64,000 nt of DNA from Chloroflexota bacterium (GCA_965261635.1 OZ253463.1:811879-875878), one strand, 5' to 3'. Shown: positions 1 to 9,014, counted from the first letter of the stretch. Notes: generated from the sequence alone by a model not told the origin. Program-made: numbers and translations.

Positions 1-299
1 AGCTTCGTGTACCCATCCTGGGCATCGTGGAGAATATGAGCTACTTCCTCTGCCCCCGCTGCGACGAACGCACGGAAATCTTCAGCCACGGCGGTGCGCG
101 CCAAGCGGCCGAAGCGATGGGAATGCCCTTCCTCGGCGAGGTACCGCTGAACGTCGCCATCCGCGAGGGCGGCGATAGCGGCAAACCCATCACAGCCACC
201 CAACCCGACTCACCCCTGGCCGCTATCTATCGCGACGTCGCCGGCGCAGTAGCCCAACAAATCAGCATCGTCGGCCAAGAAGCGGTGGTGATCAACTAA
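1..299 (+). CDS. Mrp/ApbC/NBP35-family Fe-S cluster carrier ATPase, 3' part only (5' end lies upstream of the window)
   Basis: The reading frame is open from base 3 (LRVPILGIVENMSYFLCPRCDERTEIFSHGG...). This is the characteristic C-terminal CPxC region of Mrp/ApbC P-loop ATPases. Confidence 0.75.
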   Translation, partial: LRVPILGIVENMSYFLCPRCDERTEIFSHGGARQAAEAMGMPFLGEVPLNVAIREGGDSGKPITATQPDSPLAAIYRDVAGAVAQQISIVGQEAVVIN

Positions 300-334
300 G
301 CTGGCAGGGCCAGCGCTCTCAAGAGGGGGACAGT

Positions 335-1903
335 TTACTCCCCATCCGCGCGGTTGAGTTGTTGAATGCTTAACTCAATTGCAGCTTTGAGTTTGCAGTT
401 GCTTACGCTCTTAACCAGCCCTAGAGCAATCTCAAGATCCTGCCGAGCCTCCTCGGCGCTGCCCAAAGCGGCCCTTACCCCACCCCGAATATAATATGCT
501 TCCGCAAAGTCCGGCTTATGTTGGATCGCCTGCTCATAGTCAGCGAGGAATTCTTCGTACTGGCCGAGAACTGCTTTGGCATTGCCACGGGCGGCATAGG
601 CTTCGGCCAGGTCAGGCTGAAGGCAGATTGCCCGGTCGAAGTCAGGGACGGCGTTCTCATATTTGCCGAGGTTGCTCTTTGAGTAGCCCCGATTGTAGAA
701 AGCTGCCGCAAATTCCGGTCTTAGGAGAATCGCCTGATCGTAGTTGGGAATAGCTGCCTCATATTGGCTAAGTGCAACATAGGCGTTTCCTCGGTTGTAG
801 TAAGCTTCAGCATAGGCAGTCCCAAAGCAAATCGCCTGGTCGAAGTCGGCGATAGAGTCTTCATACTGTTGCAGATTCCCCTTCGCTATACCCCGATTGT
901 TAAACGATTCTGCATTCTCTGGATCCAATTTGATGGCCTGGTCGAAGTCAGAGACTGCATCCACGTAATTGCCGAGGGTGCTCTTCGTATTGCCTCTAGC
1001 TTGATAGGCTTTGGCGTAATCCCGGTCTTTGGAAATAGCTCGGTCGTAGTCGGCAATTGCACTCTCATGCTGACTGAGCCTGCTAAAGATTAGGCCCCGA
1101 TTAAAGTATGCCGAGGCAGATGGTTCAAGTCGTATTGCCTCTTCACAGTCAACGATAGCATCGTGATGGCAGCCTAGGCTGCTCTTTGCACCAGCCCGAT
1201 TGGTAAATGCTGAGGCATATTCTGAGTTTAGGCAGATCGCTCGATCATGATCGGCTATTGCTTCTCTATGCTGGCCCTGGTTATTCTTTGCTACCCCTCT
1301 GTTGTTGTAAGCCTCAGCATAGTTTGGTTTTAGGCAGACTGCTTTGCCATAGTCTGCAATGGCGTCTTCGTATAGGCCCAGTCTGTCCTTTGCTACCCCT
1401 CTGTTGTTGTAGGCTTCGGCATAGTCCGGGTATTGGCAAATGGCACTGTCATAGTCTTTGATCGCATCTCTGTGTCTACCCAAATTGTCCTTTGCGACCC
1501 CTCGGTTATTGTATGCTTCAGGATAGTCTGGCTCATGGAGAATTGATTGGTCGCAATCTGCAATGGCTTTCCGATAATGACCAAGCTTGTTCAGAGCCAA
1601 AGCTCGATCATGGTAGGCCACTGCTGAATTTGGATCTAGCCGTATCGCCTGATCGTGGTCCGCAATAGCAGACTCAAGCTGTCCAAGCTCATAGTATGCG
1701 TTGCCCCTATTCGTGAATGCTTCGGCGAGATTCGGGTCTAGGCGGATTGCCTCATTGAAGTCATCAAGAGCTTCTCTGTAGCGACCAAGTTTTTGCTTTT
1801 CGACACCTCGGTTGTTGTAGCTTGGTGCGTAGTTTGGATTTAGGTGGATGGCTCGGTCATAGGCATTAGTCACGTCCTGGGCCGAAATTCTAGCTTTTCC
1901 CAT
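335..1903 (-). CDS. Tetratricopeptide (TPR) repeat protein, about 14 tandem TPR units
   Basis: The 539-aa ORF consists of 34-aa repeats (A-x-A/F-x-N-R-G-x-A-K-x-x-L-G-x-x-x-x-A-I-x-D-x-x-x-A-I). The DNA has a 102-bp periodicity and lower GC than its surroundings. Start is probably the internal MGKAR at 1903; the ORF could extend to 1954. Confidence 0.8.
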   Translation of the reverse strand: MGKARISAQDVTNAYDRAIHLNPNYAPSYNNRGVEKQKLGRYREALDDFNEAIRLDPNLAEAFTNRGNAYYELGQLESAIADHDQAIRLDPNSAVAYHDRALALNKLGHYRKAIADCDQSILHEPDYPEAYNNRGVAKDNLGRHRDAIKDYDSAICQYPDYAEAYNNRGVAKDRLGLYEDAIADYGKAVCLKPNYAEAYNNRGVAKNNQGQHREAIADHDRAICLNSEYASAFTNRAGAKSSLGCHHDAIVDCEEAIRLEPSASAYFNRGLIFSRLSQHESAIADYDRAISKDRDYAKAYQARGNTKSTLGNYVDAVSDFDQAIKLDPENAESFNNRGIAKGNLQQYEDSIADFDQAICFGTAYAEAYYNRGNAYVALSQYEAAIPNYDQAILLRPEFAAAFYNRGYSKSNLGKYENAVPDFDRAICLQPDLAEAYAARGNAKAVLGQYEEFLADYEQAIQHKPDFAEAYYIRGGVRAALGSAEEARQDLEIALGLVKSVSNCKLKAAIELSIQQLNRADGE

Positions 1904-2657
1904 TTTCTCCTCCCTGAAGCAGATAGCCCAATAAAGACCATACGTAGCTTGCATGGCTACTATCGACGTCCTCCAGTCGATCTACGAAGGAACGTAGCTT
2001 CTTTGTTGCGTCTTCGAGCTTGCCACTCTCAATGAGCAAGATTGCTTCAGCAATAGCATGGTCTATTGGCCGTGATTCACCAGACTTATGTGGTTGCGTG
2101 GTGTCGCGCTTTAGTCTTTCCTTTGGCGCTAGTGGCGTTGTCGTTGCCGTTGGGCGGTCTATCACGGGTGCTGAGAGATCCGGTTGGGCCTCCTGCTCTA
2201 TTCTCCCATACTCTTGGTACTTATCCAGTTCATCCTCAACATCATTTACGCGAAACAAGAGCGAGAATACCCAGATCGCAGCACTTCGAGCTACTTCGAT
2301 GACTTTCGTTTCAGGGACCCCCAATGTACTGCCGTGGTATTGCTTATTCCTATAGCTATGCACCCAAGTAATCTCGGTTCTCGACACCTTCCATTCAGAG
2401 TTCTTTTTCTCAATAGCAAACTGCAGGAAGTCAAGCTTCGAATGGTAGTTTTCTTGCCACTTTTCAACATCTCTCTTGGAGTACTTACGTTCTTGGCGCT
2501 GTGACGGGTGAAGTGTCAGGTAAGTTGAGATTGAAACCTCGATAGAGTTATCGAAGCTAATGAGAGCCATACGTCTATCAAAGTCACCGCCCTTCCGCAT
2601 GTGACCGTCCGCATGGGCTAGCAATTCAAAAGGGCCGTAGGCCCACAACGGAATCAC
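1890..2657 (-). CDS. Hypothetical protein. N-terminal globular domain, Pro/Thr-rich linker, C-terminal helical domain
   Basis: 255-aa ORF, low GC like the adjacent TPR gene. Its stop overlaps the probable TPR start. No family recognised by eye. Confidence 0.5.
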   Translation of the reverse strand: MIPLWAYGPFELLAHADGHMRKGGDFDRRMALISFDNSIEVSISTYLTLHPSQRQERKYSKRDVEKWQENYHSKLDFLQFAIEKKNSEWKVSRTEITWVHSYRNKQYHGSTLGVPETKVIEVARSAAIWVFSLLFRVNDVEDELDKYQEYGRIEQEAQPDLSAPVIDRPTATTTPLAPKERLKRDTTQPHKSGESRPIDHAIAEAILLIESGKLEDATKKLRSFVDRLEDVDSSHASYVWSLLGYLLQGGENGKS

Positions 2658-2946
2658 ATTTAGATACCAATCTTATAAATTGGGTTGAACCGCTCAAGTT
2701 GATTGAATTGAAGCCCTCCGAGATCAGGACTTGTCCGTACAAATTGGGTCGCCAGCCTCGGAACCTTATCTGGGAGTGCTTCGGCTCGGGGCTCATTTGC
2801 CGAAGATAGCGTCTACTCAGCAAGTCTTGCCCACGCCACGCACCAAACTCAATCCGCTGAACGACGACTCTTGTACCTGTCACCTTTCCTGCGGTTGTGA
2901 TATGCCCGCCGTAGGTGGCTGCCTCTCAAACTTCCCACGGCTGAGT

Positions 2947-3255
2947 CTACAGACTCTGAGATGTTCGCCAGTCCCACTTAGCTGAGGAGTCTTGGGTGGC
3001 CTTTGTATTGCTATAAGCAATCGGGAGCAATTTGCCCAGGGCCACGCCTCTTTGGTCTAAGTAGTACTCGATAGCTGCAATAGGGCTAGGTGGATCAATC
3101 GGGTAGTGCTCCGCTGCATAGACTTCGACTAGGTCAACGAGCATCTCAAGCTCGTCGCCCTCAGGCGTGCCTTCCTCTGCATGGAATATCTCACGAATCC
3201 TAGTAAGCGCAGCCTGATATTCCTGCTCTGTGCGTATAGGATCGGAGTTTGCCAT
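2947..3255 (-). CDS. higA: HigA-family antitoxin-like protein (cassette 1)
   Basis: The N-terminal region (EQEYQAALTRIREIF...GTPEGDELEMLVDLVEVYAAEHYPIDPPSPIAAIEYYLDQRG) matches the conserved N-terminus of HigA antitoxins. The C-terminal HTH looks atypical or degenerate. Sits immediately downstream of higB with a 2-nt gap. Confidence 0.65.
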   Translation of the reverse strand: MANSDPIRTEQEYQAALTRIREIFHAEEGTPEGDELEMLVDLVEVYAAEHYPIDPPSPIAAIEYYLDQRGVALGKLLPIAYSNTKATQDSSAKWDWRTSQSL

Positions 3256-3257
3256 CC

Positions 3258-3548
3258 CTAGATCTCCTTGACGTCTATGCGGTCGTACTCCGCGTGCGTA
3301 CCGATGAATCGGATGTCAACTAACCTGCGTTTGTAGTTGATTACCGCTACCAGTCGATATGAATTGCCCTTGACATTGAAGACCACACGATTAGGCGGAA
3401 TTATCCTTGCTGGGTGGAGTTGGGTTACCCTTTCCGGCGTCTCCCAATCTTCACTACACACCCGATCGTACCAGAACTCAAGCTGCTGCTTTGCATTCGT
3501 GTGTCGCTTCAAAAACCTGTAAAGTCGATCGGGGTTAGTAATTCGCAC
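3258..3548 (-). CDS. higB: HigB-family type II toxin (RelE/ParE superfamily mRNA interferase), cassette 1
   Basis: 96 aa with the typical HigB C-terminus (RLVAVINYKRRLVDIRFIGTHAEYDRIDV). Precedes higA in the classic toxin-first order. Confidence 0.8.
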   Translation of the reverse strand: MRITNPDRLYRFLKRHTNAKQQLEFWYDRVCSEDWETPERVTQLHPARIIPPNRVVFNVKGNSYRLVAVINYKRRLVDIRFIGTHAEYDRIDVKEI

Positions 3549-3781
3549 AACTAGAACGCGATACTCCCATTTATGACGATTATATACCTTCCCGATGACA
3601 GAAAACCAATGTTTTCAATGCAGCGCACAACCTTGTGAGGAGGCAAAGTCAGAAATGGATGTTCGGAGAAACAGAAACAACTCTATGGAGAAGCATGTTA
3701 ATGAGTACCCATTTAACTGAACTCAGATGAGATGGAGCCTTCTCACCATTTCTTCCTTCCGTGGCGCTAGAACTCGCTGAG

Positions 3782-4002
3782 CTAACTTGCGCCGGATTTG
3801 CCGAGGAATACCTGAGTGAGGATGTCGGTTTCGCGGATGGAGTGGGGGGAGCCGGTGAAGACGACGCGGCCCTTATCAAGCACGTAGGCGCGGTCTACTA
3901 TGTCCAGCACGCCTTTGATGTTGTGTTCCAAGATCATGATCGTGGTCTTGAGCCGCTCGCTGATCTCGGAGACTCGCTCAAGAACCTCTTTGGCAACGTT
4001 GC
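3782..4002 (-). pseudogene. Degenerate duplicated 3' fragment of livF (ABC ATPase C-terminus), non-functional remnant
   Basis: About 220 bp (3783-4002) is roughly 85% identical to 4733-4953, the 3' end of intact livF. The translated C-terminal 70 aa (VLERVSEISERLKTTIMILEHNIKGVLDIVDRAYVLDKGRVVFTGSPHSIRETDILTQVFLGKSGAS) parallels the livF C-terminus and uses the same stop. There is no ATPase N-terminus. Confidence 0.75.
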
Positions 4003-4059
4003 CACAGCCCTTTGCGCTCGTCACGTTTCGGTATGTGGTAGCCGCTTGCTTGATGAAGC

Positions 4060-4350
4060 TTAGGAAACCTTTTCGTGTTTCTCGGTTAGGGGAGTCAGGT
4101 CAGACGGCGTAGTGCCGGTTTGGTCGATTTGGAATTCGATAGCCGGACTGGGGCTGGGAGGGTCAATTGGGTAGTGCTTGTCCTCATAGCATTCGACTTG
4201 GCTGACAAGCGTTTCCAGTTCGACTCTGTCGGGGTGAATCTCTTCCGTAATCTGTCCTTGCGGTCCTGAAAGGGCGTCCATGAGATCGGATATCCGGGCC
4301 AAAGCTGTTTCGTATTCAGCCTCGTTACGGATTGTCTCAATCTTCTCCAT
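4060..4350 (-). CDS. higA: HigA-family antitoxin-like protein (cassette 2)
   Basis: 96 aa (RNEAEYETALARISDLMDA...ELETLVSQVECYEDKHYPIDPPSPSPAIEFQIDQ), the same family as 2947-3255. Sits 2 nt downstream of higB copy 2. Confidence 0.65.
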   Translation of the reverse strand: MEKIETIRNEAEYETALARISDLMDALSGPQGQITEEIHPDRVELETLVSQVECYEDKHYPIDPPSPSPAIEFQIDQTGTTPSDLTPLTEKHEKVS

Positions 4351-4352
4351 GG

Positions 4353-4646
4353 TTAAACCTCCTCCGCGTTGATGCGGTCGTATTCGGCATGGGTGCCTGC
4401 GAATCGTATGTAGACTATTCGTCCAGGGTAGAAAACTCTCACTACCAGCCGATACTCGTTGCCCTTGATCCTGAAGACGACGCGGTTGTCGGGAAGGATG
4501 CTACCCAGAGGATAGAGATCCGTCACTTGCGCCGGTGTTTCCCAATTCTCCTGCTTGGCTCTGTCGTGCCATGCACGCAAGGGACCCTCGGCATTAGAGT
4601 GGCGTTCCCAGAATTCCCTGAGCGTCCTCTTAGCAATTATTCGCAC
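4353..4646 (-). CDS. higB: HigB-family type II toxin, cassette 2
   Basis: 97 aa (…NRVVFRIKGNEYRLVVRVFYPGRIVYIRFAGTHAEYDRINAEEV). Roughly 55% identical to the copy at 3258-3548. Confidence 0.8.
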   Translation of the reverse strand: MRIIAKRTLREFWERHSNAEGPLRAWHDRAKQENWETPAQVTDLYPLGSILPDNRVVFRIKGNEYRLVVRVFYPGRIVYIRFAGTHAEYDRINAEEV

Positions 4647-4729
4647 AACGGGCGTACAGTGCTCCCCTTTTACGACAAATTATACACTCTATCTAGAGCG
4701 ATACATCCTGTGGATGTCCGGCTTCTCGC

Positions 4730-5536
4730 CTAGCTTGCGCCGGATTTGCCTAGGAAGACTTGGGTGAGGATGTCGGTTTCGCGGATGGAGTGGGGGGTGC
4801 CGGTGAAGACGATGCGGCCTTTGTCGAGGACATAGGCGCGGTCTACTATGTCGAGGACGCCCTTGATGTTGTGCTCGACGATCACGATGGTCGTCTTGAG
4901 CCGTTCGCTGATTTCAGACACGCGCTCAAAGACCTCTTTGACGACGATGGGCGCGAGGCCCAGGGTCGGTTCATCCAGCAGGAGCACATCGGGAGCCGCC
5001 ATGAGGCCGCGGCCAAGGGCGAGCATCTGCTGCTGCCCGCCGGACATTTGGCTGGCCAGGTCGCGGCGCTTGCTCTGCAGGATGGGGAAGATCCGCATCA
5101 CTTCGTCGAGACGGCGGTTCTTTTCCGCCTTATCTTTCAAGGAGAGGCAGCCCATCTCCAAGTTTTCCTCTATGGAGAGGTGCGTGAAAACGCGCCTACC
5201 CTGTGGGACGAAGGCAATGCCCTCTTTCACGATCTCATGGGTCTTTGCCGCCAGTCGCTTCCGCCGCCACAGGACCTTACCGGCCACGACGGGCGCAAGA
5301 CCCATGACGGCCTTGAGCACCGTGGACTTGCCGGCGCCGTTAGGGCCCATCACGGCCACGACCTCACCCTTGCTTACGCCCAGCGAGACCTCATCGAGAG
5401 CGACCACGGCCCCGTAGTGCACGGATATGCCGGAGAGCTCGAGGATCGGCTCGTTGTTTTCGGGTGCACCGTCCGAGTCGGCGACAGCGGGTGGATTGGG
5501 GATCTGCTCTTCGGTTGTTTCTTCGGGTGTGTTCAT
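4730..5536 (-). CDS. livF: Branched-chain/HAAT-family ABC transporter ATP-binding protein LivF-like
   Basis: Walker A GPNGAGKST, signature SGGQQQML, Walker B LLLDEP. Last gene of the minus-strand liv operon. The N-terminal roughly 30-aa extension is uncertain. Confidence 0.85.
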   Translation of the reverse strand: MNTPEETTEEQIPNPPAVADSDGAPENNEPILELSGISVHYGAVVALDEVSLGVSKGEVVAVMGPNGAGKSTVLKAVMGLAPVVAGKVLWRRKRLAAKTHEIVKEGIAFVPQGRRVFTHLSIEENLEMGCLSLKDKAEKNRRLDEVMRIFPILQSKRRDLASQMSGGQQQMLALGRGLMAAPDVLLLDEPTLGLAPIVVKEVFERVSEISERLKTTIVIVEHNIKGVLDIVDRAYVLDKGRIVFTGTPHSIRETDILTQVFLGKSGAS

Positions 5537-5844
5537 TGGATTGCTTTGTGTTAATTTGCGCTCGCGGCTGGGAGCGTGGTCATTACCCGCTTTTCCTGAC
5601 TGTGCTTTGCCGTATCCCCCTCACCCCCGTATCAAGTACGGGGCAGGCTCTAGCCCTCTCCCGCATGGAGAGGGGACCGGACTAGAGTTTGGGTGTCTGC
5701 ACACTTCACCCCATTTACCTATGCCAGCCCTCTACTTGCGTTAGTCCTCTGCATGAGTGAGCTCAATTACCTACGCCAACTCTCTACCTGCATCAAGAGT
5801 TCTCCCAAACCGCGTATATTCTGAAATTTACAGTGTTTCGCGTG

Positions 5845-6606
5845 CTACACGCCCAAGTACGCGTCGATTACCTTCGGTCGGCTCAAAACCTCGTCGACGG
5901 AGCCTTCCGCGAGGAGGCTGCCGCTATCCAGGATGATAAGGTGGTCGGAAAGCTCGCGCACGATATCCATGTTGTGGGAGATGAAGACAATTGTGTCGCC
6001 TTGTTCCCGCATGCGGTTCATGATTTCCTTCACCTTCTCCACCATCTCGGGAAAGAGGCCGGCAAAGGGTTCATCGAATAGGTAGATATCAGCCTCCATG
6101 GCCATGGCGCGGCCGATTTCCAGTAGTTTACGCTGACCGTAGGACAGGTTCATGGCGAGGGCATCCCGCTTTTCCCACAGGCCGACAATCTCCAAAATGC
6201 CCCGCACCTTATCCCGTTGCACCGGCTTTACCCGCTCAAGCAGAGCGGGAAAGAGCCGACGCTCGGTCAAAACCACCATTAGGTTATCCCACACGGTGAC
6301 CTGGTCGAAGAGCCGTACCTCTTGAAACGTGCGGGTCAGGCCGTGGGCCGGGTTTTCGTGGGCTTTCACCACTTTCAGGCTGATACCGTCTACGACTACA
6401 ATGCCTCCGTCCAGGGGCAGCACGCCGCTGAGGAGGTTCACCAGCGTGGACTTTCCCGATCCGTTCGGCCCGGCGATGCTGGTTAATCCCTTCTTGGGAA
6501 TGGAAATGGAGAGTTTCCGCACCGCTCGCACGGCGCCAAAGTGTTTCGAGATACCATCCGTCTGTATGACGTAGTGGTCGTCGATTTTCTCTGAACCGGG
6601 TCTCAA
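5845..6606 (-). CDS. livG: HAAT-family ABC transporter ATP-binding protein LivG-like
   Basis: GPNGSGKST, LSYGQRKLLEIGRA, IYLFDEP. The start is most likely a TTG overlapping the livM stop (cTTGA), preceded by GGAGGT. The longer listed ORF (to 6867) overlaps livM with Arg-rich junk. Confidence 0.8.
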   Translation of the reverse strand: MRPGSEKIDDHYVIQTDGISKHFGAVRAVRKLSISIPKKGLTSIAGPNGSGKSTLVNLLSGVLPLDGGIVVVDGISLKVVKAHENPAHGLTRTFQEVRLFDQVTVWDNLMVVLTERRLFPALLERVKPVQRDKVRGILEIVGLWEKRDALAMNLSYGQRKLLEIGRAMAMEADIYLFDEPFAGLFPEMVEKVKEIMNRMREQGDTIVFISHNMDIVRELSDHLIILDSGSLLAEGSVDEVLSRPKVIDAYLGV

Positions 6607-7664
6607 AGCTTGTACCTCCCAACCAGGCCCTGGGGCCGGAAGAGCATCAGCAGCACCAGCAGAATGCCCAGCACGACGAGCCGAGCCTGACCGACGTGCA
6701 CGGTAGGCAGAAACGGTAGGAAGCGCATACCCTCTTCCAGCAGCACGAAGGCCATGGCGCCTAGCAGCGAGCCCCAGATGGTGGCCAGCCCGCCGAGGAT
6801 TACGATGGCGACGAGCAGCATGGATTCCAGGAGAATGAAAGAGTTCGGGTCTACGAAGGTCGTCCAACTCGCGAAGAGCCCGCCGGCCAGACCCGCCATC
6901 ATAGCTGAAATGGTCCAGACCGCCAGCTTGTAGTGGGTGGTCTGGTAACCAAAGACCGCAATTGCTTCCTCGTCCTCACGGATGGTGGTTAGAACCCGCC
7001 CAAATGACGATGTCACGATGAGCCAGGAAAGCAGCACGATGAATGCGAGAAACGCGAGGACGAACAGGAGGAACTCTAGCTCTCCATCGAACGTGAACCC
7101 GCCTACCGCAGGCCGGGCTACCTCATGAATGCCGAATGCGCCGCGGGTGAGGCCGCGCCAATTCAAGAATACGTTGAAGCTGATGATGGCGAAGCCGAAC
7201 GAAACAAGGACGTAGATATCGTCCCGAAACCGGTTGAACACCACGCCTACGGCAATGGCAATGACCCCGGCGAGCAGTACGCCCACAGGCAGCGCCGCAA
7301 AGAAGGGCCAACCAAAGGTAGGGATGGCCTCGGTGCGCAGTTGGTCGTACTCAGCTTTCGACGTGAGGATCGCGACCGTGTAGGCGCCGATGCCAAAGAA
7401 GCCGATGTGCCCCACTGAGAGTAGGCCGGTAAACCCCACAACGAGGTTCAGGCTGACTGCCAGAATCGCCCAGATCGCAAAGACGGTGCCAACCGTGATG
7501 GCGAATCCGACTCCCTGCCACAGCATGAAACCAAGCGCCCACGCGATGATCACCAGATTAGCCCACAGTTCCACATTGCTTTTGACGGCTGCCAGGAGTT
7601 CCTGTGGATTGCCAAGAAGCCGCGTGGACTTTCCGTTGCTATTTGCGTTCGTTTGCATGCGCAT
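6603..7664 (-). CDS. livM: HAAT-family ABC transporter permease LivM-like
   Basis: 353-aa polytopic membrane protein with the LivM-type topology and conserved hydrophobic core. Adjacent to the livH stop. Confidence 0.8.
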   Translation of the reverse strand: MRMQTNANSNGKSTRLLGNPQELLAAVKSNVELWANLVIIAWALGFMLWQGVGFAITVGTVFAIWAILAVSLNLVVGFTGLLSVGHIGFFGIGAYTVAILTSKAEYDQLRTEAIPTFGWPFFAALPVGVLLAGVIAIAVGVVFNRFRDDIYVLVSFGFAIISFNVFLNWRGLTRGAFGIHEVARPAVGGFTFDGELEFLLFVLAFLAFIVLLSWLIVTSSFGRVLTTIREDEEAIAVFGYQTTHYKLAVWTISAMMAGLAGGLFASWTTFVDPNSFILLESMLLVAIVILGGLATIWGSLLGAMAFVLLEEGMRFLPFLPTVHVGQARLVVLGILLVLLMLFRPQGLVGRYKL

Positions 7665-9014
7665 TTACTTCCTCGGCAAGAGGCCTTTGGGCCAGAACGA
7701 TAGAAACAGAATCAAGAGTACGAAAGAGATAACGTCTCGCCACTCGCCCGCCAAGTCCCAGATGCCGAATTGTTCGATCATTCCCAGCACGAATCCGCCA
7801 ACAATGGCGCCTTGCAGGTTGCCAATACCGCCTACCACTGAGGCGATCCAGCCTTTCAGCAAGAGCAGCAGTCCCATCCGGGGTTGAATAGCCGTATCGT
7901 GGCCGCTCAAGATGCCTGCCAGGGCCGCGTAGACCGCGCCGATGAAGAATACTACGGCGATCACTGTGGTGGTGTTTATGCCCACCACCTTCGAGACCTC
8001 TTCATCATCGCCGATGGCACGCACCGCCTTGCCGAACGCGGTCTGCTTGAGCAAAAACTGCAAGAACAAGAAGCCCAAAAGCGCTACGCCGACGGTGAAC
8101 ATGTTAAAGCCTTTGATGCTCGCCCCGGCGATGATCCAGGGATCGCTGCCGAGGGCTTCAGGCAGGGGACGCGGCGTGCTCTCGAAAACTATGCTGGTAA
8201 AGGCGGTGATTGCCAGCAGGATGCCAAGCGTTGCAACCAACATGATCAGGGGCGACCGCGACCGTTCCCGCATGTACACGTATAAACCTCGGTAGAGGGC
8301 AAGACCGACGACTCCCGCCAGGAAGCAGGAAACTCCCCAACTAAGATACAGCTTCGAGTCGGGAGCATTGGCGATAAGGAAACCGCAGTACGCTCCCAAG
8401 GCCGCCGCTGCGGCGCCGGTGATGCTGACAGCCGCCAGCAAGAGACGGCCGGCAACGATGCCTTGATAGGCTTGGTACAGTGCCCAGGTCAGAGCCGCAG
8501 CCACGCCGATTCCGATCACGGGGCTGAGGGTGAGGTGCAGATCTTTAGGATACGAAAGCACGACGCCCGTGTAGACTCCTGCGGCTGCCGCCAGCACTCC
8601 GCCGACGCCAAACAGGATGGATCGATTAACACGCGACCGAAAGCGGGGATACATGCTTTCGTAGAGTGCCCAGGCGACGACGCCGGCGGTTACCGCGGCG
8701 TAGAGGACGTTCACGAATACGTTGTTGACTGCATACAATCCGCCGAGGGTCTCTTGCGACCGTAGGTAGAATACGCCGTATGCGCCCAGCGCAGCCGCCG
8801 CTCCATAGTACAGATCGAAGAACCAGACGGTGCTATAGACCAGAGTAAACCCCAACGCCAGCAGGGCGTATACGGCCCCGACGGACAAGCCGTTGAAGGC
8901 AAACTGCAGGGCTTGGTCGGGAGACTCGCTGATCTTCCAACCGACGTATGCCGCAGCGGCCGCTGTGAGTACTATTGCCAGGAGGTTATTCAGGCTAGGG
9001 CGTTGGGCAATCAA
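7665..9014 (-). CDS. livH: HAAT-family ABC transporter permease LivH-like with an N-terminal extension
   Basis: 449 aa. The C-terminal region (LLKGWIASVVGGIGNLQGAIVGGFVLGMIEQF) is typical of LivH. Extra N-terminal transmembrane segments. Confidence 0.8.
   Translation of the reverse strand: MIAQRPSLNNLLAIVLTAAAAAYVGWKISESPDQALQFAFNGLSVGAVYALLALGFTLVYSTVWFFDLYYGAAAALGAYGVFYLRSQETLGGLYAVNNVFVNVLYAAVTAGVVAWALYESMYPRFRSRVNRSILFGVGGVLAAAAGVYTGVVLSYPKDLHLTLSPVIGIGVAAALTWALYQAYQGIVAGRLLLAAVSITGAAAAALGAYCGFLIANAPDSKLYLSWGVSCFLAGVVGLALYRGLYVYMRERSRSPLIMLVATLGILLAITAFTSIVFESTPRPLPEALGSDPWIIAGASIKGFNMFTVGVALLGFLFLQFLLKQTAFGKAVRAIGDDEEVSKVVGINTTTVIAVVFFIGAVYAALAGILSGHDTAIQPRMGLLLLLKGWIASVVGGIGNLQGAIVGGFVLGMIEQFGIWDLAGEWRDVISFVLLILFLSFWPKGLLPRK

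Follow-up and report, generated by a model that had tools for sequence, protein, structure and literature searches.

A once-formed livF 3' repeat, two higBA cassettes and a variable gene island in a Chloroflexota bacterium and related Dehalococcoidia

In a 64,000-nucleotide (nt) stretch of DNA from a Chloroflexota bacterium (GCA_965261635.1 OZ253463.1:811879-875878; called here the window, to the whole of which all coordinates refer), the last gene of a liv-type ABC-transporter operon is followed by a toxin-antitoxin operon of the higBA kind, by a displaced copy of the transporter gene's own 3' end, and then by a second higBA operon. The transporter gene is labeled livF, as shorthand for LivF/UrtE-like, and its displaced 3' copy is called psi. 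Rather than a recent duplication, the locus bears a scar that was inherited and that recombination apparently continues to rework; it lies within known kinds of system. The reading that we consider probable as a whole is that of a single ancient rearrangement whose products have since been recombining, with the second operon (cassette 1) as cargo of a variable island. According to this reading, the rearrangement would have brought a higBA operon, promoter included, to the 3' side of a complete livF and, in the same event, would have left the displaced last ~72 livF codons as a direct repeat; both livF repeats and the flanking core genes would then have served as homology arms for ordinary homologous recombination.

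The order and strand of the elements come from a listing of open reading frames (ORFs) together with direct reading of the sequence, and all genes of interest lie on the minus strand. livF (5536..4730) encodes an ATPase of 268 amino acids (aa) that matches PF00005 with an E-value (E) of 7.7e-33, and its end (4730..4949; codons ~197-268 plus the TAG stop) constitutes the functional copy of the repeat. A spacer of 83 nt (4647..4729), which holds a promoter-like element, leads to cassette 2, composed of higB2 (4353..4646, 97 aa) and, after a 2-nt gap, higA2 (4060..4350, 96 aa). The 58-nt junction spacer that follows (4002..4059) is native higA downstream sequence, fused at ~4000 to livF codon ~197. 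Here psi begins (3782..4001), open as an 80-aa ORF (3782-4024) with a GTG start at 4024. The 233-nt interval from psi to higB1 (3549..3781) comprises a non-conserved filler (3593..3781) and a promoter-like region (3549..3592) that aligns with the promoter-proximal region of livF-adjacent cassettes; cassette 1 is then made up of higB1 (3258..3548, 96 aa) and higA1 (2947..3255, 102 aa), again separated by 2 nt. The two copies of the livF end (3782-4001 and 4730-4949) align by BLASTN without gaps at 85.9% identity over 220 nt (E 7e-72), with the TAG stop at the same aligned position, and BLASTN of the window found no second repeat of this kind in its 64 kb. In these respects the initial annotation was accurate: it had placed two HigB/HigA cassettes and a copy of the livF 3' end to within 1-4 nt of the elements described here, had set cassette 2 directly beside an intact livF, and had recognized a displaced livF 3' end that is ~85% identical to the original and shares its stop, an alignment that is indeed significant. 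(The same arrangement recurs in independent ENA, NCBI and Logan assemblies, chromosome-size contigs included; an assembly artefact is therefore ruled out.)

Related loci, designated by L numbers, were obtained in two ways. A LivF scan of species-representative genomes gave 80 loci, all from metagenome-assembled genomes of uncultured Chloroflexota/Dehalococcoidia, and look-ups of HigA2 homologues and psi-like ORFs gave 13 more. Among the 80, only L004 has hig genes after livF, in the form of a single cassette without psi; such genes are absent from L003 and from 76 more distant loci. All of the further loci with enough flanking sequence read in the same order: liv operon, livF, higB, higA (87 or 96 aa), psi (as an ORF of 71-80 aa), variable genes, and a convergent mrp gene. 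The order livF-higB-higA-psi is thereby found in L001, L002, L083-L089 and L091-L093, from at least 10 independent Dehalococcoidia assemblies, and L002 carries both cassettes, as the window does. Relatives with an empty site (L003 and the 76 distant loci) or a single cassette (L004, L001, L083-L093) do therefore exist, as the initial annotation had predicted. In L004 the higB gene adjoining livF is split over two frames (tblastn matches at 7897-8058 and 8064-8186 in the region 7897-8186); either the toxin gene has become a frameshifted pseudogene next to an intact higA of 87 aa, or an indel error in the long reads has split it. From their sample names, several of the related assemblies are presumably sponge-derived. 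Restriction-modification and toxin-antitoxin genes are reported to be enriched in sponge-associated microbes (PMC5649159, PMC5099237).

The junction between higA and psi bears on the origin of the repeat. The spacer of ~58 nt is homologous in the window, L001, L002, L083-L087 and L004, in an alignment that extends from the higA stop into psi, and in every psi lineage it joins livF at the same nucleotide, within codon ~197. In L004 the same spacer runs instead into the start codon of a gene for a methyltransferase-HNH protein, and homology between L004 and the window ends at 3999. Because the spacer is homologous and the livF nucleotide is the same in every lineage, the junction arose once; the rearrangement that created psi happened a single time and was inherited by a Dehalococcoidia clade. 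This single origin therefore argues against repeated site-specific insertion. It also disposes of the proposal that a higA-higB unit with the livF end was duplicated in this genome, since livF-higBA2-psi is common to the clade through one junction. Independent insertions at one livF position, which the differing leader peptides of psi had suggested, were considered and rejected: there is one spacer and one breakpoint.

The sequence of psi does not look like that of a fragment left to decay where it fell. The initial annotation had called it degenerate, but its reading frame contains neither a stop nor a frameshift, and 23 of the 31 codons that differ from livF are synonymous. Compared with the intact livF end in the window, psi has a synonymous divergence (dS) of 0.69 and a ratio of nonsynonymous to synonymous divergence (dN/dS) of 0.06, and third codon positions account for 24 of the 30 differences (p 2e-7 against an expectation of 1/3). 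This dS is as large as that between livF of the window and livF of L003 or L004 (~0.53), and the two copies therefore diverged while both were functional; a dN/dS of 0.06 excludes decay in place. By comparison, the livF ends of the window, L001, L002 and L083 have a mutual dS of 0.15-0.27, far under the value for psi against livF, and the dN/dS of the livF 3' end among relatives is 0.03-0.17.

In a neighbour-joining tree of 198-nt livF 3' segments, psi is polyphyletic. The psi of L085 pairs with its own livF (86% bootstrap), and the psi copies of L086 and L087 group with the real livF end of L003, an empty-site locus, from which they differ at 9 and 12 nt, all at codon position 3, while L086 and L003 have no more than ~83% identity in the liv genes that precede livF. 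The psi copies of the window, L001 and L002 form a clade of their own (90% bootstrap), which has evolved faster and under relaxed constraint (dN/dS 0.21-0.40, versus 0.04-0.10 for the livF ends). The grouping of psi with local livF alleles indicates homologous recombination rather than in-place decay. In other lineages psi has broken down, by a frameshift in P0068, by a two-codon deletion and loss of the stop in P0084 and by loss of the stop in P0097, and its dN/dS reaches 0.6-0.74 in L084; its start codons and leaders vary by lineage (MTSAxGCGN, MGVG, MGRG, MVNVD or none). We infer that psi is a relic and that homologous recombination now and then replaces it with functional livF 3' sequence, supplied either by the resident livF or by incoming DNA for which psi serves as a homology arm. 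Such overwriting would explain the coding-like appearance of psi and its clustering with local livF alleles; in some lineages psi is decaying. (It should be kept in mind that most psi copies were retrieved by protein search, which finds open frames only.) Concerted evolution alone was also considered. It accounts for L085; the window does not fit, since its psi shows no greater similarity to the resident livF than to those of relatives. An example of a psi-specific peptide contains the stretch MTSAKGCGNVAK. A separate set of short ORFs in public assemblies (P0071-P0136) starts at internal LivF methionines (MLALGRGLMA..., MELFPIL..., MGCLYL...); these are probably not displaced fragments but pieces of livF genes broken up by indel errors or by the ends of contigs, and they inflate the apparent count of "LivF C-terminal" mini-proteins.

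The higBA operon that lies between the repeats has been subject to exchange as well. The liv operons of the window and L083 are 96% identical and their livF genes have a dS of 0.11, whereas the dS of higB and higA is 0.92-1.0; the drop in nucleotide identity, from 94-99% to 65-82%, coincides exactly with the stretch enclosed by the repeats. Alleles of two types are found in this livF-adjacent slot, one with a HigA of 96 aa (cassette 2 of the window, L001, L002, L083 and L085) and one with a HigA of 87 aa (L004, L084 and L086). Among close relatives, then, the higBA allele between the livF repeats has been replaced by diverged alleles.

Downstream of psi a different kind of variability is seen. 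Colinearity between the window and L001 (95.5% identity) ends 2 nt beyond the psi stop, and the next match comes only at the 3' end of mrp; in general the homology of relatives stops 2-8 nt after the psi stop (at 3780 for L001 and at 3774 for L002) and resumes at the mrp 3' end (298..3). In L002, homology also resumes at 3592, leaving 3774..3592 as sequence that the two loci do not share, and the filler at 3593-3781, the left edge of the variable island, has no similarity to the livF-higB2 spacer and no Rfam match. The right edge of the island is the stop codon of a convergent mrp/apbC-like gene (27..299, plus strand). In the stretch bounded by the stops of psi (or livF) and mrp, close relatives have at least eight configurations. 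In the window the interval holds higBA1 and, in its remaining part (300..2946), orf255 (1890-2657) and a TPR protein (335-1954), and in L002 it holds higBA1 and the TPR protein. L001 has a 127-aa protein and a Dsr1-like protein of 970 aa; L004 has the methyltransferase-HNH protein, a 221-aa protein and a Dsr1-like protein of 968 aa; L003 has a C5 methyltransferase, a Methyltransf_35 protein and an HATPase protein; L083 has a HEPN/Toprim protein of 451 aa, matched in its N-terminal domain; L084 has a Dsr1-like protein of 1184 aa; L085-L089 have proteins of 274 and 90/91 aa; L092 and L093 have proteins of 221 and 881 aa; and L091 has nothing but 107 nt.

The matches among this cargo comprise type II/III methyltransferase models, the methyltransferase-HNH fusion, the Dsr1-like proteins (E 6e-28 to 3e-12) and the HEPN/Toprim N-terminal domain; orf255, the 274-aa, 221-aa and 127-aa proteins, and the TPR protein of the window have no clear assignment to defence. 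The Dsr1-like proteins (968-1184 aa; L001 7275-10187, L004 10647-13553, L084 1226-4780) match the C-terminal part of the PADLOC Dsr1 model at E values of 6e-28, 8e-16 and 3e-12, respectively. A Pfam search found nothing in two of the three and a sub-threshold match to pP_pnuc_1 in that of L084 only, and these large proteins may be diverged defence proteins. Searches of Pfam, NCBIfam and PADLOC assign orf255 to no family, and L002 does not have it. There is an overlap of 65 nt between orf255 and the listed start of the TPR protein (539 aa), which is itself common to the window and L002 at ~80% nucleotide identity and has only weak PADLOC TPR matches. The locus resembles defence islands and hotspots in its conserved flanks (livF/psi and mrp), in sharp boundaries that coincide with their stop codons, and in its varied cargo. 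Unlike typical defence islands, it is very small (0.1-5 kb), has no visible integrase or transposase, and carries several cargo proteins without a family. The initial annotation had proposed that the livF 3' end is an insertion hotspot. Gene turnover downstream of livF bears this out, but the livF 3' end itself has not been hit repeatedly; what turns over is the interval from the psi or livF stop to the mrp stop and, as a separate matter, the alleles between the repeats.

Cassette 1 belongs to this interval in its distribution. It is absent from L001, L083-L089 and L091-L093, that is, from most psi-bearing genomes, and the filler matches neither the livF-higB2 spacer nor the equivalent sequence of L002, so that the association of cassette 1 with psi assumed in the initial annotation has to be given up. 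Between the window and L002 the dS of cassette 1 is 0.43-0.70, compared with ~0.16-0.25 in its surroundings, which suggests that cassette 1 has itself been exchanged. In our reading, the stretch from the psi stop to the mrp stop would turn over as a small defence-type island, with higB1-higA1, orf255 and the TPR protein as its current cargo. The relationship between the two cassettes of the window is distant. Their DNA aligns by BLASTN only in patches of 67-71% identity, HigB1 and HigB2 are 54% identical (estimated earlier as about 55%), HigA1 and HigA2 are 42% identical, and synonymous sites are saturated, in line with the previous view that these are old, diverged modules rather than recent copies. 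Because the cassettes are saturated but psi and livF have a dS of 0.69, either the cassettes and psi were not copied together or psi has since been overwritten; cassettes 1 and 2 do not stem from the event behind the present psi/livF pair. HigA1 is closest (61-70% identity) to the 87-aa HigA that adjoins livF in L004, L084 and L086, which therefore keeps an ancient tandem duplication, or the recombination of two livF-associated higBA modules, among the plausible origins of the junction; the latter had been put forward in the initial annotation.

The toxin genes are the more readily recognized members of the cassettes. The HigB_toxin family PF09907 spans each HigB from end to end (HigB1, positions 1-74 of the 74-residue profile, E 3.8e-24, 85.2 bits; HigB2, positions 2-74 of 74, E 2.3e-25, 89.1 bits; cut-off 27 bits), and HigB2 is similar to the E. 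coli HigB chains 5YCL_B (E 2.1e-6) and 5IFG_A, at E ~2e-6 over residues 1-94. Judged by these matches, HigB1 and HigB2 are predicted toxins of the E. coli YgjN/HigB type, within the RelE/ParE superfamily. The reference system, HigB-HigA (YgjN-YgjM) of E. coli K-12 (PDB 5IFG, 5YCL, 6KML), is resembled in several ways: the toxin gene comes first and the antitoxin gene second in both cassettes, PF09907 is matched over its full length, HigB2 is homologous to the E. coli toxin, and the best match of the HigA family profile among solved structures is E. coli HigA. This last match is weak (5IFG_B, E 0.067). None of the four toxin-antitoxin proteins has an NCBIfam match; HigA1 and HigA2 have no Pfam match either, models of the helix-turn-helix (HTH) included, and single HigA sequences gave nothing meaningful against the PDB.

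Unlike E. coli HigA, which has 138 aa, the antitoxins of the window have 96 and 102 aa and stop inside helix 3 of the Xre-type HTH. A search with the HigA family gave 1060 representatives at E<=1e-3, and the best 150 of the 1060 are mostly 120-150 aa long. At least 27 clusters of 96-aa homologues (61-92% identity) have the C-terminus of HigA2 (...EKHEKVS). In an alignment with the longer relatives P0049 and P0051, which continue (...SEVLSGKR...LGI...), this end coincides with the beginning of the recognition helix; of the two, P0051 has an HTH_3 match that does not reach the cut-off (E 0.0014). In an AlphaFold2 model of HigA2 (predicted local distance difference test score, pLDDT, 80.7), three helices are followed by a disordered tail at residues 87-96. 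Foldseek found no match to this model at E<=0.001; a model of three helices is probably too small for such a search. The tail of HigA1 (...SSAKWDWRTSQSL) is not HTH-like and resembles that of a 131-aa group (P0020, P0033-P0037). The members of this group read past the usual stop into a conserved non-HTH tail (...SSGRWDWQTSLDPAVNSVMRRV...), of which HigA1 shares the beginning, SSAKWDWRTSQSL; the tail could be a degenerate HTH or a frameshifted remnant. Both window proteins thus appear to be HigA-type antitoxins, homologous to canonical HigA in the N-terminal region that binds the toxin, that lack a complete HTH DNA-binding domain. DNA binding by the short HigA is doubtful, and because both proteins lack the complete HTH, the usual autorepression by HigA at its own operator is unlikely here. 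A literature search on HTH-less HigA found no directly relevant paper. The possibility that both higA genes were clipped by the rearrangement, through homology-facilitated illegitimate recombination, was considered and was rejected for higA2, given that purifying selection acts on the 96-aa form and at least 27 protein clusters have it.

All four toxin-antitoxin genes are under purifying selection. For higB2, dN/dS is 0.15-0.20 in comparisons with L001, L002 and L083, and for higA2 it is 0.14-0.43; against the L002 copies it is 0.30 for higB1 and 0.24 for higA1, where the proteins are 68% (HigB1) and 83% (HigA1) identical. Both cassettes are probably working type II toxin-antitoxin pairs, in which HigB would act as a ribosome-dependent mRNA endonuclease and would be neutralised by the N-terminal helical part of HigA.

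Each higBA operon also seems to have a promoter of its own, in the form of a promoter-like element. For cassette 2 this is GTGTATAAT, an extended -10 sequence read as ATTATACAC on the plus strand at 4679-4687, which is followed by GGGGAG and the GTG start; for cassette 1 it is TATAAT, read as ATTATA on the plus strand at 3579-3584 and followed by GGGAG and the GTG start. The proximal ~60 nt, TATAAT included, are kept in all livF-adjacent cassettes and in cassette 1. A generic scan for sigma-70 -35/-10 pairs found no full promoter at cassette 2. Directly upstream of the cassette-2 TATAAT lies a perfect palindrome, CTCTAGATAGAG (4685-4700, minus strand), which a scan reported as a terminator-like hairpin and which is the sole hairpin predicted near cassette 2. 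It has the look of an operator but is not conserved in L001, L002, L083 or L086. An Rfam scan of 2600-5900 gave no match.

Several points weigh against the view that one ancient rearrangement was followed by recombination, with cassette 1 as island cargo. The nature of the original event is shared among four candidates, namely tandem duplication, homology-facilitated illegitimate recombination, single-crossover insertion of a circle, and a decayed integrative element. The position of cassette 1 is precisely the one that a tandem duplication would give its distal copy, and L004 has a cassette of this type as its only one. Recombination was deduced rather than directly observed, with breakpoints drawn from segments of only 213 nt at modest bootstrap. 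The psi copies of the clade that includes the window are enriched for differences at third positions (p 9e-4 to 0.02) and have a dN/dS of 0.2-0.4 rather than 1, and selection on a psi product could also explain this enrichment. Finally, the assignment of HigA leans on the weak similarity to 5IFG_B and on gene context.

The strongest of the rivals, which was the first option of the initial annotation and which we still regard as unlikely, holds that a unit of ~950 bp (the last 220 bp of livF, higB, higA and the spacer) was duplicated in tandem by unequal or illegitimate exchange, and that cassette 1 is the diverged distal copy. Such a duplication predicts precisely the order livF, cassette, psi, cassette, and the spacer-livF junction resembles a head-to-tail joint. 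The promoter-proximal ~60 nt are homologous between the cassettes, the two-cassette state is also found in L002, and HigA1 is of the 87-aa-like type that L004 has in its single cassette without psi. The event could have been recent and confined to this genome, or ancient, in the ancestor of the clade, and followed in most lineages by loss or replacement of the distal copy. The recent version is excluded by the occurrence of the junction in at least 10 diverged assemblies, by the saturation of the cassettes together with the psi/livF dS, and by a psi/livF dN/dS that is incompatible with in-place decay. The ancient version is weakened by the absence of cassette 1 from most psi-bearing loci, by a filler that matches neither of the spacers to which it might correspond, and by the excess dS of cassette 1 over its surroundings.

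A bolder pair of proposals, which even taken jointly we think improbable, would make the livF repeats a recombinase-free mobility device for a "homology-armed" selfish toxin-antitoxin cassette or, failing that, would make psi a LivF mini-protein that works with an HTH-less HigBA. In the former case, a higBA operon between a full livF and a 220-bp livF end could enter a naive livF locus by a double homologous crossover, leaving the gene unharmed, and could exit by recombination between the repeats; psi could then be reseeded each time from a functional allele and be kept translatable by second-order selection.

Very unlikely, in our estimation, is descent from a site-specific integrative element of the e14/phage 21 type, which would have brought its own livF 3' end and displaced the original as psi, with higBA as an addiction module and an integrase that has since been deleted. 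Toxin-antitoxin modules commonly stabilise mobile elements, which speaks for such an origin. So does the likeness to the icd and icdC sequences that flank e14 in E. coli K-12, where excision yields a functional icd-icdC chimera (PMC13626634): there too an intact gene, cargo and a displaced C-terminal fragment stand in a row, the differences between the repeats are mostly synonymous, and recombination between the livF repeats would likewise delete the cargo and leave a chimeric, functional livF. Unlike e14, however, the repeats of the window enclose a toxin-antitoxin operon of 0.6 kb and nothing else, and no integrase or recombinase lies between the repeats in the window or in any related locus; the ~13 loci examined have only higB and higA there. 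The single, clade-inherited livF junction stands in contrast to independent insertions at one att core. No identical core was seen at the repeat boundary, the longest identical run being near the 3' end of the repeat, and in L004, which lacks psi, the same spacer leads into a chromosomal methyltransferase gene. Exchange at livF would apparently proceed by general homologous rather than site-specific recombination.

Weakest of all, and scarcely probable, is the idea that psi is a maintained small gene for a 71-80-aa C-terminal subdomain of LivF, co-transcribed with higBA as a third component. Its role might be to titrate or modulate the Liv transporter, or to couple the toxin-antitoxin pair to the uptake of amino acids. 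In favour of this idea, most copies keep an open frame across lineages that diverge by up to ~30% in amino-acid sequence, comparisons of psi copies give a dN/dS under 1 (0.15-0.40) and a significant excess of third-position differences, and psi follows higA at 36-65 nt with no predicted terminator between. Against it, start codons and N-terminal leaders are not conserved, P0068, P0084 and P0097 are frameshifted, internally deleted or stop-less, motifs invariant in real LivF are altered (EHN to EHK, D to Y, G to C), the dN/dS of L084 rises to 0.6-0.74, psi groups with local livF alleles as recombination with functional genes predicts, and a survey by protein search favours open frames.

The livF gene and its operon deserve some comment of their own. 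The window LivF scores below the NCBIfam equivalog cut-offs of both of its nearest models (NF008626 LivF, 206 bits against 441; TIGR03410 UrtE, 217 bits against 286) and is therefore named LivF/UrtE-like; an exact look-up of its sequence gave no record. In relatives the liv context consists of a Peripla_BP_6 protein, two BPD_transp_2 permeases and a LivG-like ATPase (ABC_tran plus BCA_ABC_TP_C), followed by livF, and the ORFs of the window are colinear with the gene calls of these operons. Residues 1-30 of LivF (5440-5536, minus strand) form an acidic, proline-rich N-terminal extension, MNTPEETTEEQIPNPPAVADSDGAPENNEPI, that is found in the closest relatives only; matches to more distant LivF homologues begin at about residues 20-31. 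The mechanically called livG ORF (5845-6867, minus strand) has 340 aa with an arginine-rich N-terminal extension of ~87 aa, and its real start is probably internal, given the 253 aa in the gene calls of relatives. The gap between livG and livF (5537-5844, 308 nt) is unusually long for the inside of a liv operon. It contains a GC-rich element of 43 nt with hairpin potential, CCCCTCACCCCCGTATCAAGTACGGGGCAGGCTCTAGCCCTCT (5617-5659), which occurs once in the window and at 97.7% identity in L001 (11398-11440) and L002 (10587-10629), there on the opposite strand and beyond mrp, near an SNase gene. The element is a candidate for a small dispersed repeat of the kind represented by repetitive extragenic palindromic (REP) sequences or miniature inverted-repeat transposable elements (MITEs).

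Taken together, this locus provides a natural example, in poorly studied uncultured Dehalococcoidia, of three familiar processes: the duplication of a gene's 3' end upon insertion of a module, the shuffling of toxin-antitoxin cassette alleles between the resulting repeats, and the turnover of a miniature, putatively defensive island between two convergent core genes. Two of its features are mildly unusual, namely the conserved clade of HTH-less HigA proteins and the coding-like preservation of psi. For annotation there is a practical warning, in that the 71-80-aa "ABC ATPase" ORFs of these genomes are displaced livF ends. The interval from livF to mrp offers a well-bounded locus in which recombination and the turnover of candidate defence genes can be followed at the level of strains. 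The conserved clade of HigA proteins without a complete DNA-binding domain would, if confirmed, raise the question of how these higBA operons are regulated.

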